DNA of 64,000 bases from an uncultured Methanomassiliicoccales archaeon (GCA_963695345.1 OY968769.1:2115649-2179648), one strand, 5' to 3'; counted from the first letter of the stretch, positions 52,940-57,025 are shown. Program-made: numbers and translations. Notes: generated from the letters alone by a model not told the origin.

Positions 52940-54805
52940 ATGACGAAAGACCGGCTCAAGGTCTACGGAAAAAAGGTCACCACGGCGGAAGACGCAGTCC
53001 GCTCCATAGGTCGGGGCAAGACCATATTCATCGGCACCGGGTGCGGGGAACCGCAGGCGCTGGTGATGGCGCTCATCGCCGAGTCCGAGAACCTGGGGGA
53101 CAATGAGATCGTCCAGACCCTGTCGCTTGGACTGATGCCTTACAACGAAGAACGGTTCAACGATCGTTTCCGCCTCAACGCATTCTTCATTGGGCCCAAT
53201 GTACGATACGCCGTCAATGACGGCAGGGCGGACTACACCCCGGTCAACCTGTCGCAGATCGAGAGGATGTTCGAATCCGGCAAGGTGGTCATCGACGTGG
53301 CGTTGATCCAGGTATCACCTCCCGACGCCAACGGGGACTGTTCATTGGGCGTTTCCGTGGACATTACCAAGTCGGCCGCCGAGAATGCCGACATGGTGAT
53401 CGCCCAGGTCAATCACAACATGCCCCGAACGCACGGGGATTCTCTCATCAACATATCCGAGATCGACCATGTGGTGGAGATCGATGAACCGATCTTCGAA
53501 TGGAGGCCAGAGCGGGAGGAGAAGATGGAGGTCCTTACCAAGCTGGGCAAATACCTGTCTGACCTGGTGCCGGATGGAGCCACGCTGCAGATCGGTTACG
53601 GTTCCACCCCGGACGCGGCCATCAAGTATCTGGCCAAGAAGAAGGACCTGGGCGTTCACACCGAACTGCTCTCGGATGGATTGGTCACTCTCATCGAATC
53701 CGGGGCGGTCAACGGTTCGAGAAAGACCCTGGACAGCGGCAAGGTGGTGGCATCCTTCGTCATGGGCACGCAGCGTGTCTACGATTTCATCAACGACAAT
53801 CCGATGGTCGAGATGCGCCAGTCGTCGTACACGAACGATCCGTGCATCATCGGAAGACAGGACAACATGATCTCGATCAATTCCGCGCTGCAGGTCGACC
53901 TCACCGGTCAGGTCTGCGCCGATCAGTTGGGAAACAAGTTCTTCTCCGGTCTGGGAGGCCATGTGGATTTCATGCGAGGGGCGGCACGTTCGAAGGGCGG
54001 AAAGCCGATCATCGCCATGCCGTCGACGGCCCGGGACGGGTCGGTGTCTCGCATAATGACCACCCTGGACCCGGGCTCGGCGGTCACCACCACCAGGGGC
54101 GATGTGCACTATATCGTGACCGAATACGGCATCGCCGAACTGCATGGCAAGAGCATCTCGCAGAGGGCGATCGCGCTCATATCGATAGCCCACCCGAAGT
54201 TCCGCCCACAGCTTCTGGCACATGCAAAATCGCTCGGTTATGTGTTCAAGGACGTCTCGGGAATGATGTTCACCGGAACGATCTACCCGGAGCAGTACGA
54301 GGCCGTCCTGATGATGAAAGGCGTCGAGGTCTACTTCCGCCCGGCAAAACTGACCGATGAGGCGATGATCAAGGAGATGTTCTACTCTCTATCCGAGGCG
54401 ACCATGTACCAGCGTTACATGGGGCCGAAGAAGCAGATGCCCCACAAGGAGATCCAGCGTCTCATCGACATCGACTACGAGGGGACCATGACGGTCATCG
54501 CCATGGAAAAGGACTCTGACCATTTCCACGTGATCGGCATGGCGTCCTACGACACGGACAAGGCCAGCAACACCGCCGAGGTGGCATTCGTGGTGGTCGA
54601 CCGCTGGCAGAACAAAGGCATAGGCATGCAGTTCATGGACATGCTGATCAAGATCGCCAAGGACAAAGGGGTGAGGGCATTCACTGCCGAACTGCTGTCG
54701 GAGAACTTCCGCATGCTCGACATGTTCTATCGCACCGGGCTCAAGGTCGAGGCGAGATTGGTCGAGGATACCTACATGGTCAACATGGACCTTTGGTCAA
54801 AGTGA
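52940..54805 (+). CDS. acetyl-CoA hydrolase/transferase domain fused to a Pat-type GNAT acetyltransferase domain
   Basis: FSGLGGHVDFMRGAARSKGGKPIIAMPST and TRGDVHYIVTEYG mark the CoA-transferase family. The C-terminal FRPAKLTDEAMIKEMFYSLSEATMYQRY, IDIDYEGTMTVIAM and VVDRWQNKGIG mark the GNAT domain. Confidence 0.75.
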   Translation: MTKDRLKVYGKKVTTAEDAVRSIGRGKTIFIGTGCGEPQALVMALIAESENLGDNEIVQTLSLGLMPYNEERFNDRFRLNAFFIGPNVRYAVNDGRADYTPVNLSQIERMFESGKVVIDVALIQVSPPDANGDCSLGVSVDITKSAAENADMVIAQVNHNMPRTHGDSLINISEIDHVVEIDEPIFEWRPEREEKMEVLTKLGKYLSDLVPDGATLQIGYGSTPDAAIKYLAKKKDLGVHTELLSDGLVTLIESGAVNGSRKTLDSGKVVASFVMGTQRVYDFINDNPMVEMRQSSYTNDPCIIGRQDNMISINSALQVDLTGQVCADQLGNKFFSGLGGHVDFMRGAARSKGGKPIIAMPSTARDGSVSRIMTTLDPGSAVTTTRGDVHYIVTEYGIAELHGKSISQRAIALISIAHPKFRPQLLAHAKSLGYVFKDVSGMMFTGTIYPEQYEAVLMMKGVEVYFRPAKLTDEAMIKEMFYSLSEATMYQRYMGPKKQMPHKEIQRLIDIDYEGTMTVIAMEKDSDHFHVIGMASYDTDKASNTAEVAFVVVDRWQNKGIGMQFMDMLIKIAKDKGVRAFTAELLSENFRMLDMFYRTGLKVEARLVEDTYMVNMDLWSK

Positions 54806-55045
54806 CCGTCGAAGGTTTTATAGCGGCCAGGAAGGGGTTCAAGGATTGATCTCAGGGGGACGTGTCGTCATCCATTTTCAGGAATCCTACAAGAAGTGTC
54901 TACAGATGGAAAAAACCTGGCGGAGGGGATGTCCCTCCTAATAGGTTTGGAAATTATTAGGGGGGCCAAAGGTGGTTCCTTCGGCGTCCCTCGCAGGACG
55001 AACCAATATTTCATAATTATTGGCTCATCCTACGGACTTTCGGAA

Positions 55046-57025
55046 TCATTTCTTTACCTGGAGCTTGTGCTCCTCCACCAGCTTGCCGACGACGCTCGGG
55101 TCGGCCAGTGTGCTCACGTCGCCCAGCTCTTCCGCCTGACCGGAGGCGATCTTCCTCAGTATCCTCCTCATGATCTTGCCGCTACGGGTCTTCGGCATGG
55201 CGGTGGCGAACTGGATGGTGTCTGGTGAAGCGATCGGTCCGACCATGTGCCTCACGTGCAGGACCAGGTCCTTCTTCAGCTGGTCCGTTTCCTCGACCCC
55301 GGACTTCAGGGTCACATAGGCGTAGATGGCCTCTCCCTTGATGTCATGCGGGACAGGCACGACCGCCGCCTCCGCCACCTTCGGGTGGGATACCAGCGCC
55401 GACTCCACCTCGGCCGCTCCTATCCGGTGTCCGGAGACCTTGATGACGTCGTCCACCCTGCCCATGATCCAGACATATCCGTCCTTGTCCATGCGGGCGG
55501 AGTCCCCGGTGAAATAGTAACCAGGGAACCTGCTCCAGTAGGTGTCCTTGAACCGGTCATGCTGACCATAGACCGTCCTCATGATGCCGGGCCACGGTTT
55601 CTTGATGACCAGGTATCCGCCTTCGTTCACCGCCGCCTCGCTTCCATCCTCTTTGAAGATGGCCGGCTCGATTCCGAAGAACGGCTTGGTTGCCGAGCCT
55701 GGCTTGGTCTGCGTCGCTCCCGGCAGGGGGCTGATCAGGATGCCTCCGGTCTCGGTCTGCCACCAGGTATCGACGATGGGGCACTTTTCCTGTCCGATGT
55801 TGCGATGGTACCACATCCACGCCTCTGGATTGATCGGTTCGCCCACCGAGCCGAGCAGTCTGAGCGACGAGAGGTCGCGCGACTTCGGCCACTTCTCCCC
55901 TTCCCTCATCAACGAGCGGATGGCGGTCGGCGCGGTATAGAACGTGCTGACCTTGAACTTCTCCACGATCTGCCAGAACCGGTCCGGCTGGGGGTAGGTC
56001 GGTATGCCCTCGAACATGAGCGTGGTGGTGCCGTTGCACAGCGGTCCGTAGACGATGTACGAATGCCCGGTGATCCAGCCGATATCGGCGGTGCACCAGT
56101 AGGTGTCCTCCTCGTGGACGTCGAAGATGTACTTGTGGGTCATCGCCGCGAACATGAGATAGCCAGCGGTGGTGTGCAGAACGCCCTTGGGCTTGCCCGT
56201 CGAACCGCTGGTGTAGAGAATGAACAGAGGGTCCTCCGCCTCCATCCAGGTCGGCTCGCAGAAGAGCGAGGCCTTGGCCATCTCCTCATGGTACCAGAAA
56301 TCCCTTCCCGCCTCCATCTCGACCTCGGCGCCGGAACGCCTGATGACGATGACGCTCTCTACCGGACCGCCCTTCTCCAGGGCCATGTCGGCGTTGATCT
56401 TGAGGTTGACCGGTTTGCCCCCGCGGTGGTTCCCGTCGGCGGTGATCAGGACCTTGCAGTTGCTGTCGTTTATCCGGTCGCGTAGGGATTCGGACGAGAA
56501 TCCGCCGAAGACGATGCTGTGCACCGCTCCGATCCTGGCGCAGGCCAGCATGGCGATCGCCAGTTCCGGGATCATGGGCATATAGATGGATACCCGGTCA
56601 CCCTTCTGGACTCCCTTGGACTTGAGCACATTGGCGAACTTGCAGACCTCGTTGAGCAACTGCTGATAGGTCAGGGTGACGACCTCTTCGTCCTTCTCAC
56701 CCTGCCAGATGATGGCGGCCTTGTTCTTCCTTGGGCCCATCGTGTGGCGGTCGAGGCAATTGTAGGCTACGTTGGTCATGCCTCCCTCGAACCACTTTAT
56801 CTTTGCCTCTGCCTTGTCCCAGCTGGAGATCTTGTGCCATCTGGAGTACCAGTGGATGAGGTCAGCCTGCTTTGCCCAGAACCCTTCCGGGTCTTTGATC
56901 GATTCATCGTAGATCGCCTTGTACTCGTCGAAGCTCTTCACCAAGGCCTTCTCACTGAATTCGATCGGCGGATCGAAGCGTCTATCCTCTTCCATGACTG
57001 ATTCGATGGTATGCTGGTCGGTCAT
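55046..57025 (-). CDS. acs: acetyl-CoA synthetase (AMP-forming)
   Basis: [19 protein letters not shown] and [11 protein letters not shown] are present. The gene is intact at 659 aa. Confidence 0.9.

Follow-up and report, generated by a model that had tools for sequence, protein, structure and literature searches.

A CoA-transferase-GNAT fusion as a candidate Pat-like protein acetyltransferase at the acetate/acyl-CoA node

A 64,000-nucleotide stretch of DNA from an uncultured Methanomassiliicoccales archaeon (GCA_963695345.1 OY968769.1:2115649-2179648; the window) carries a gene that joins a CoA-transferase to a GNAT acetyltransferase in a single polypeptide and that faces a gene for acetyl-CoA synthetase (Acs). 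What might such a fusion protein do, and is the neighbouring synthetase its target? Of the post-translational switches that act on acetate activation in bacteria, Pat-type acetyltransferases are the best understood, and to our knowledge almost nothing comparable has been described for methanogens and most anaerobic lineages. On the best reading, the fusion represents an architecture new among Pat-like protein acetyltransferases and works at the acetate/acyl-CoA node; its regulatory CoA-transferase module, to judge from the residues, looks catalytically alive.

The fusion is one uninterrupted open reading frame (ORF) of 621 amino acids with an ATG start (52940..54805, plus strand). An earlier note on this DNA had described it so, and the peptides quoted there, FSGLGGHVDFMRGAARSKGGKPIIAMPST, TRGDVHYIVTEYG, FRPAKLTDEAMIKEMFYSLSEATMYQRY, IDIDYEGTMTVIAM and VVDRWQNKGIG, are all present in its translation. 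The ORF list, Pfam and NCBIfam together divide it into a CoA-transferase module, a linker and a Pat-type GNAT module. An AlphaFold2 model with 71 homologues as input has a mean predicted local distance difference test score (pLDDT) of 88 and a predicted template modelling score of 0.84; conservation is low in the linker (residues 433-455; 54236..54304, plus strand), where pLDDT falls to about 72 in residues 441-450. When the C-terminal 237 amino acids were used to scan a single genome for each species, relatives turned up in at least 592 species genomes; the 80 loci kept as a sample span more than 25 groups of phylum rank in Bacteria and Archaea. Since 76 of these 80 loci in other genomes encode the same two-module ORF, the remaining four being cut by contig ends, the fusion is not an assembly artefact. 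In the window it lies between a convergent ORF of 659 amino acids (55046..57025, minus strand), from which it is separated by 240 bp, and a divergent ORF of 638 amino acids (50356..52272, minus strand) at a distance of 667 bp.

The GNAT module (residues 456-621; 54305..54802, plus strand) includes a Pat-type N-terminal motif, FRPAKLTDE...FYSLS...YQRY, at residues 466-493. Pfam GNAT models cover residues 465-606 with scores above their gathering values (Acetyltransf_1, E = 1.5e-7). When the module alone is compared with NCBIfam, the mycobacterial Pat model is the best match (2.3e-22, 79 bits), and the next families, RimI, ArsN1 and AblB, follow at 1.5e-4 to 4.6e-4. In a sequence search of the PDB, all eight matches at or below 1e-6 are Pat-type lysine acetyltransferases, whereas the best small-molecule GNAT reaches 5e-3. 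These eight come from the GNAT of Streptomyces lividans PatA (4nxy, 5.4e-13), two full-length entries named 'protein acetyltransferase', one of which (9it0, 2.3e-11) is Escherichia coli PatZ by its Foldseek title, and the Pat proteins of Mycobacterium tuberculosis and M. smegmatis; among them, 4ava scores 2.1e-8. Foldseek matched the module to the S. lividans Pat GNAT in complex with the C-terminal domain of Acs (4u5y) with a template modelling (TM) score of 0.91 and a root-mean-square deviation of 2.1 Å, and also to E. coli PatZ. At E<=1e-10, a GNAT-only search of 1.84 billion representatives returned 1888 clusters, of which the best 150 are CoA-transferase-GNAT fusions and fragments interleaved with type I Pat architectures (an ADP-forming acyl-CoA synthetase (ACD)-like domain followed by GNAT, as in P0189 at 5e-23) and type II architectures (GNAT followed by the ACD-like domain, as in P0269 at 4e-19). 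In this search the classical Pat architectures rank among the fusion family's divergent members. In every comparison made, whether by profile, solved structure or fold, the GNAT module appears to belong with the Pat clade and not with AblB, and the Pat-type character that the earlier note had given it is borne out by the NCBIfam Pat model, the PDB matches and Foldseek.

The residues expected of a Pat enzyme are also retained. In a set of 71 homologues with identities down to about 50% and a mean column identity of 62%, R467, D473 and R492 of the N-terminal motif are invariant and P468, E474, F481, Y482 and S485 are conserved in at least 90%; an alignment of 19 C-terminal sequences agrees. Glu547 (codon 54578..54580, plus strand), the predicted general base, lies in an AEVAF sequence that S. 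lividans PatA also has at the aligned position. This glutamate does not vary in the 19-sequence alignment (as E163 of A1) and is at least 90% conserved in the 71 sequences; its catalytic role is proposed from the Pat literature (reviewed in PMC8556138). The sequence QNKGIG (residues 557-562; 54608..54625, plus strand) fits the Q/R-x-x-G-x-G/A acetyl-CoA pyrophosphate-binding loop, or GNAT motif A, as defined in PMC8556138. Its G562 is invariant and its Q557 and G560 at least 90% conserved among the 71 homologues, and the Q and the last G are invariant in the 19-sequence alignment. Pat enzymes acetylate the catalytic lysine of Acs (PMC8556138, PMC6456759).

The divergent gene at 50356..52272 raises a different possibility, which the earlier note had kept as an alternative. 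Its product belongs to the KamA family of radical SAM proteins (TIGR00238, 307 bits against 199), and the fusion could, by analogy with AblA/AblB, be a small-molecule N-acetyltransferase for a beta-amino acid produced by this KamA-like aminomutase. A KamA-like gene lies near the fusion in its two closest relatives as well. We nevertheless consider such a role extremely unlikely, because the AblB score is low and the synteny is not conserved. The AblB model (TIGR03827) gives the GNAT module an E value of 4.6e-4 and 19.7 bits, far below its cut-off of 205.1, against the 79 bits of the Pat model. The KamA-like protein itself has an N-terminal extension of about 230 amino acids and falls under no equivalog, the glutamate 2,3-aminomutase model giving 220 bits against a cut-off of 650. 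Even in the closest relatives, genes for DnaJ and a small membrane protein separate KamA from the fusion: in one (L084, 86% identity) the order is KamA-like, DnaJ, small membrane protein and then the fusion convergent with Acs, and in the other (L083, 89%) it is KamA-like, DnaJ, fusion, MMPL, regulator and Acs. In three Methanomassiliicoccales at 61-63% identity (L081, L082 and L085) the KamA-like gene is absent from the neighbourhood and the fusion is flanked by the trp operon on one side and archaellum genes on the other, beside a divergent gene that we read as PRC-barrel-like. KamA is likewise absent from 79 of the 80 distant loci, occurring near the fusion in one. Thus, the KamA link is local and weak.

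The PRC-barrel-like gene has a counterpart in the window, of 90 amino acids (48193..48465, minus strand), to which the copies in L085 (7590..7868) and L081 (7520..7732) show 56% and 46% protein identity. Here it is separated from the fusion by a permease gene and the KamA-like gene. Because it is the divergent neighbour of the fusion elsewhere, the arrangement in the window, with its broken permease gene, suggests that the permease and KamA-like genes were inserted between the two, which also counts against a conserved partnership with KamA.

The large N-terminal module (residues 1-432; 52940..54235, plus strand) is a family-I CoA-transferase of the AbfT/TtCoAT (4-hydroxybutyrate / short-chain acyl-CoA:acetate) subfamily. 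Pfam places AcetylCoA_hydro (PF02550) over residues 21-183 (E = 3.9e-30, 105.8 bits) and AcetylCoA_hyd_C (PF13336) over residues 276-429 (E = 4.1e-67, 225.4 bits), both above their gathering scores, and a Pfam scan of the fusion ORF found no NDP-forming synthetase domain (CoA_binding_2, Succ_CoA_lig or ATP-grasp_5). The nearest solved relatives in the PDB sequence search are 4-hydroxybutyrate-type CoA-transferases (9vag, 1.1e-129; 3eh7; 2oas; 3gk7, 5.8e-108), and Foldseek gives TM scores of 0.89-0.95 to AbfT, AtoA and RipA (0.93 for 3gk7). Pfam and the PDB search thus agree with the earlier description of this part as CoA-transferase-like rather than as an NDP-forming synthetase. The module scores under every NCBIfam equivalog cut-off, for example 312.6 bits against 674.8 for the butyryl-CoA:acetate CoA-transferase equivalog (TIGR03948), and for that reason no substrate is assigned to it.

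Its active site seems to be complete. Glu242 (codon 53663..53665, plus strand), predicted to form the CoA thioester, lies in the motif GVHTELLSDG and aligns without gaps to residue 238 of AbfT (3gk7), which we take to be the catalytic glutamate of that enzyme, as Glu249 presumably is in RipA; it is conserved in at least 90% of the 71 family members. The GGxxDF loop, a putative oxyanion and CoA-binding motif (residues 337-344, GLGGHVDF; 53948..53971, plus strand), is common to all the aligned 4-hydroxybutyrate CoA-transferase structures, and G337, G339, G340, D343 and F344 are invariant in the 71 homologues. Since the catalytic glutamate and the oxyanion loop are conserved across the family, the module is probably an active CoA-transferase, intact in structure and, by its residues, in catalysis.

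This conservation bears on the simplest way of transferring the Pat model to the fusion. The large N-terminal domain of Pat binds acetyl-CoA and is inactive but needed for activity (PMC8556138, PMC6456759), and its catalytic His has been lost (PMC8556138). The CoA-transferase module could likewise be catalytically irrelevant and serve only as an acetyl-CoA-binding, oligomerising sensor, as in type I and type II Pat. The order of domains, a large CoA-binding domain and then the GNAT, is that of type I Pat (PMC8556138), the GNAT is of the Pat clade and the family lies under the equivalog cut-offs of all named CoA-transferases, all of which suit a silent sensor. However, where Pat has lost its His, the fusion family keeps Glu242 and GGxxDF invariant or in at least 90% of the 71 homologues, and its N-terminal module is conserved more strongly than the GNAT, a degree of conservation unexpected for a mere scaffold. 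We therefore regard a silent sensor as quite unlikely, and the earlier proposal of an exchanged module, which implied a Pat-like silent sensor, needs to be changed accordingly. MxKat of Myxococcus, which joins an NADP-binding domain to a GNAT, was also considered as a possible member of this family, but its NADP site at Gly11 does not appear to fit the N-terminus of the fusion.

The convergent gene encodes an AMP-forming acetate--CoA ligase, Acs (55046..57025, minus strand; NF001208, 1065 bits against 657; TIGR02188, 1030 against 725), which is the probable local substrate of the GNAT module. The models and a motif check confirm the earlier note's convergent Acs with an intact target motif, and the Acs motif peptide quoted there is present in the translation. 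Its Lys617 (codon 55175..55177, minus strand), in the PX4GK motif PKTRSGK, is the equivalent of the lysine acetylated by Pat and is the predicted target. The P[KR]TR[ST]GK form of this motif is kept in all 13 Acs-like neighbours of fusion genes elsewhere.

The company that the fusion gene keeps in the 80 loci extends this picture. Neighbours were collected by tblastn and by unbiased clustering of all ORFs in about 1.0 Mb of flanking sequence, and the cluster representatives were annotated with Pfam, NCBIfam and the PDB. Because many contigs are short, each count given here is a minimum. Lineages that carry the fusion include Methanomassiliicoccales, Methanothrix, Asgard archaea, Planctomycetota, syntrophs and Chloroflexota. 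The commonest partner, in 40 of the 80 loci, is an ACD (CoA_binding_2, Succ_CoA_lig, Ligase_CoA_2 and ATP-grasp_5), which retains the SHTGxLAG phosphohistidine motif and is directly adjacent on the same strand in 30, several times with overlapping stop and start codons. A class-I HDAC-like deacetylase, with best PDB matches to Clr6, Rpd3, HDAC1/2/8 and HDLP, is found in 16 loci and directly downstream in seven of them. AMP-forming ligases occur in 13, ten of these being Acs orthologues with 55-67% identity. By our own estimate, ten Acs orthologues in this flank is roughly 10-50 times the expectation for one or two copies per 2-8 Mb genome. Other recurrent neighbours are a protein of about 350 amino acids with AAA_26 and DRTGG domains (PtaN-like; 13 loci), a phosphohexomutase (8), a sigma-54 regulator (6, assigned from sequence) and an MFS transporter (5). 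One operon form, seen in Planctomycetota and others, has the order ACD, fusion, HDAC, with intergenic distances from -17 (an overlap) to +37 nt, and often has Acs and an MFS transporter within 5 kb; another, in several archaea, Thermotogota and others, has the fusion followed by ACD and DRTGG in either order.

Two of these associations merit a remark of their own. The DRTGG protein, which resembles the regulatory N-terminal domain of phosphotransacetylase, accompanies ACD and the fusion; its loci, several of them archaeal or from Thermotogota, are L008, L009, L019, L020, L021, L029, L032, L037, L039, L052, L053, L066 and L072. Longer variants of the fusion (P0161, 967 amino acids; P0213, 960 amino acids) begin with an N-terminal extension of about 340 residues that bears 4Fe-4S dicluster motifs and precedes both modules, which hints at a redox input in some lineages.

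With genes for acetate-handling enzymes and a deacetylase as its neighbours, the family probably serves to turn those enzymes on and off. We accordingly favour, as somewhat better than an even bet, the explanation that the fusion works as a lysine acetyltransferase on enzymes at the acetate/acyl-CoA node, with Acs Lys617 as the best local candidate and with the CoA-transferase module coupling its output to the acyl-CoA/acetate pool; here we infer the protein substrate or substrates, the direction of regulation and the communication between modules. The GNAT module would carry out acetyl-CoA-dependent acetylation of lysines in these enzymes. In the window it would acetylate Lys617 of the adjacent Acs and turn the synthetase off; in other lineages the targets could be Acs, the operon-encoded ACD or both, with the class-I HDAC-type deacetylase as the eraser. 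The CoA-transferase stands where classical Pat has its inactive NDP-forming-synthetase-like domain, and probably links the output of the acetyltransferase to the acyl-CoA/acetate pool by sensing, through a Glu242-CoA thioester formed from acetyl-CoA, or alternatively by making an acyl-CoA donor locally.

Several observations weigh against this explanation. An Acs orthologue lies within 10 kb of the fusion in only 10 of the 80 loci, and Acs is not nearby in the Methanomassiliicoccales relatives at 61-63% identity (L081, L082 and L085). A quarter of the sample (25 of 80 loci) has none of the partners listed above. The 64-kb window holds no homologue of ACD, of the relatives' HDAC-type deacetylases or of DRTGG. 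HDAC-family enzymes can act on small molecules too, though the one beside the fusion genes of other genomes is class-I-like. Lastly, a protein whose role is mainly metabolic would be just as compatible with an intact CoA-transferase active site and with operons shared with ACD.

The earlier note had described the fusion as encoded beside its probable substrate, and had set the frequency of fusion-acs adjacency as a test beforehand, with a lack of conserved synteny counting against the proposal. The adjacency in the window stands, and Acs is also near the fusion in the two closest relatives (L084, 86% identity; L083, 89%). At 10 of 80 loci and shallow within Methanomassiliicoccales, conserved synteny is weak, and to that extent the proposal loses strength. 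ACD, the family's main partner, is missing from the window and was thus out of the note's sight. Adjacency to Acs and to KamA is shallow in this order in both cases; Acs alone recurs independently in distant phyla. Of the earlier beta-amino-acid proposal little is left, KamA being confined to the closest relatives, with DnaJ between, and to a single distant locus. The absence of a visible deacetylase from the window, which the note had also remarked on, agrees with a search for homologues of the relatives' HDAC-type deacetylases and with a search for a hand-written sirtuin motif pattern, neither of which had a match, deacetylase profile models not having been run on the window.

How far would a mainly metabolic role go in explaining these data? 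The fusion would then be a CoA-transferase working with the ACD of the operon, in a cycle in which acyl-CoA and acetate give the free acid and acetyl-CoA, and acetyl-CoA, ADP and Pi give acetate and ATP; the GNAT would modify the transferase itself, in cis or within an oligomer, or the ACD, and the adjacency of Acs would be coincidental. This accommodates the conserved CoA-transferase residues, the predominance of ACD among the neighbours, with an operon in 30 of 80 loci and an intact SHTGxLAG motif, and the majority of loci that have no link to Acs. It cannot so easily accommodate the window, where the fusion is intact and ACD is missing, nor the enrichment of Acs near the gene across phyla and its presence in the two closest relatives, nor a GNAT with a Pat-type N-terminal motif and a fold like that of the Acs-bound S. 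lividans Pat GNAT. Self-modification has a precedent of sorts in TtCoAT of Thermus thermophilus, which is enzymatically acetylated, mainly at Lys5 (bioRxiv 10.1101/2025.10.31.685773). Lys5 and Lys6 of TtCoAT (9vag) align with Lys11 and Lys12 in the N-terminal tail of the fusion (52970..52975, plus strand), so that this pair is a candidate self-acetylation site only: K12 is kept in at least 90% of family members, but K11, the residue aligned with Lys5, is not conserved. Taken together, a mainly metabolic role, though the chief rival, appears somewhat unlikely.

A broader version of the acetyltransferase explanation is possible, though we would not expect it with any confidence: the fusion may be the writer of an undescribed but widespread reversible acylation module made up of ACD, the CoA-transferase-GNAT protein, a class-I HDAC and often Acs, in which an active CoA-transferase sets or edits the acyl donor. 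If so, acylation of the enzymes that activate or form acetate would report the acyl-CoA/acetate balance directly.

The fusion itself is no discovery, since the family is already listed in databases under generic names such as 'GNAT family N-acetyltransferase' and 'acyl-CoA hydrolase/GNAT...'. The best 120 whole-protein homologues are all about 620 amino acids long, and both sets of Pfam domains, CoA-transferase and GNAT, are present in all except two. What appears to be new is the Pat-clade identity of the GNAT, the intact transferase site and the context of ACD, HDAC and Acs. Literature searches found no paper describing a CoA-transferase-GNAT fusion, and the scheme that sorts bacterial acetyltransferases into types I-V does not include this architecture (PMC8556138, PMC6456759). 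The family thus offers a concrete candidate regulator, outside the type I-V lysine acetyltransferase classification, in methanogens and other anaerobes, and if the favoured explanation is true it opens a direct route to experiments on the control of Acs in acetate-dependent methanogens. For ADP-forming acyl-CoA synthetases no control by acetylation is known to us. If the link with ACD is real, a single operon would connect substrate-level phosphorylation, ATP-free CoA transfer and protein acetylation.

Some features of the surrounding DNA may be recorded here. About 400 nt of GC-rich sequence (52530..52939) with no obvious coding role lie between an AT-rich promoter-like region and the fusion start. 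A structured leader 5' of the fusion is unsupported: the 400 nt upstream fold no better than shuffled sequence (z of -0.89 and +0.12 on the two strands), and an Rfam search of the window gave no match. The region has no similarity to its equivalent in the relatives, where DnaJ and a 70-amino-acid membrane-protein gene are found, and the idea that it is a DnaJ remnant was rejected, as tblastn with the relatives' DnaJ gave no match there. The permease gene beyond KamA, of the APC amino-acid type as assigned from its translation (48805..50131, minus strand), is split into two overlapping ORFs of 323 (49160..50131) and 163 amino acids (48805..49296), the first ending in out-of-frame-looking sequence and the second continuing the transmembrane protein; this is a frameshift, due either to a pseudogene or to a sequencing error.

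On the other side of the locus, beyond Acs, translations suggest a helix-turn-helix (HTH) regulator-like gene (57600..58025, minus strand), a PAS sensor histidine kinase-like gene with an N-terminal membrane region (58116..60668, plus strand) and a response regulator-like gene (60565..61086, plus strand). HTH_20 and response-regulator genes likewise lie past Acs in L084 (11432..14692), with the HTH gene apparently duplicated. These genes may regulate acs or the fusion gene. In L084 itself Acs is called in three fragments (8114..10089) and the KamA-like gene is also broken up, while the fusion protein (P0003, 76% coverage) loses similarity over its GNAT part. P0003 is one of the two homologues lacking a domain, and its contig, which has visible frameshifts, probably contains frameshift errors rather than real gene decay.

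Comparison with known systems helps to place the fusion. The methanogen beta-lysine N-acetyltransferase AblB is, as in the window, a GNAT encoded beside a KamA-family aminomutase, but the fusion falls short of the AblB model, its gene and the KamA-like gene diverge instead of forming an operon, and this pairing lacks conservation. AbfT of Clostridium aminobutyricum (3GK7) and RipA of Yersinia pestis have the fold of the N-terminal module (TM 0.91-0.93, 38-40% identity) with the glutamate and GGxxDF aligned; they differ in being stand-alone proteins of about 440 amino acids with no GNAT.

The nearest solved homologue of the N-terminal module, TtCoAT (TT_C1083; 9vag), is a CoA-transferase for short-chain fatty acids, with acetyl-CoA as its donor. 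It gives the favoured explanation a precedent, being the main target of the GNAT lysine acetyltransferase TT_C1711 and the Zn-dependent lysine deacetylase TT_C0104 (bioRxiv 10.1101/2025.10.31.685773). Thermus encodes the transferase and the acetyltransferase in two genes, as individual proteins, and regulation is via an alanine-dehydrogenase-like partner, whereas the fusion places both activities on one polypeptide. In Bacillus, AcuA and AcuC beside acsA provide a GNAT writer and a class-I HDAC-type eraser next to the acetyl-CoA synthetase that they control, and the ACD-fusion-HDAC operons with Acs near (e.g. L026-L028) share this logic. AcuA differs in being a single-domain GNAT outside the Pat clade, without a CoA-transferase and with no ADP-forming synthetase involved, and, unlike the AcuA/AcuC locus, the window has no detected deacetylase gene.

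The closest parallels are the classical Pat enzymes. The type II PatA of S. lividans (4NXY, 4U5Y) is both the best PDB sequence match and the best GNAT-only structural match, sharing the RP...D...LS...Y.RF motif and AEVAF; its GNAT is N-terminal, followed by the ACD-like domain, and is about 24% identical to that of the fusion. Type I Pat/PatZ/YfiQ of Salmonella enterica and E. coli (9it0, 9isq) has, like the fusion, a large CoA-handling N-terminal module and a C-terminal GNAT of the same clade, with the catalytic Glu, the QxxGxG loop and a link to an AMP-forming Acs whose PX4GK lysine Pat acetylates. The fusion differs in that its N-terminal module is a family-I CoA-transferase (PF02550 and PF13336) rather than NDP-forming acyl-CoA-synthetase-like, retains its catalytic residues where the Pat domain is reported inactive, and forms part of a protein of about 620 rather than about 886 amino acids; half of the fusion loci encode a separate, apparently active ADP-forming synthetase. 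If the broader acylation module proposed above is real, the gene order of ACD followed by CoA-transferase-GNAT may lie near the ancestral arrangement that gave rise to classical Pat, in which an ACD-like domain is joined to a GNAT of the same clade.

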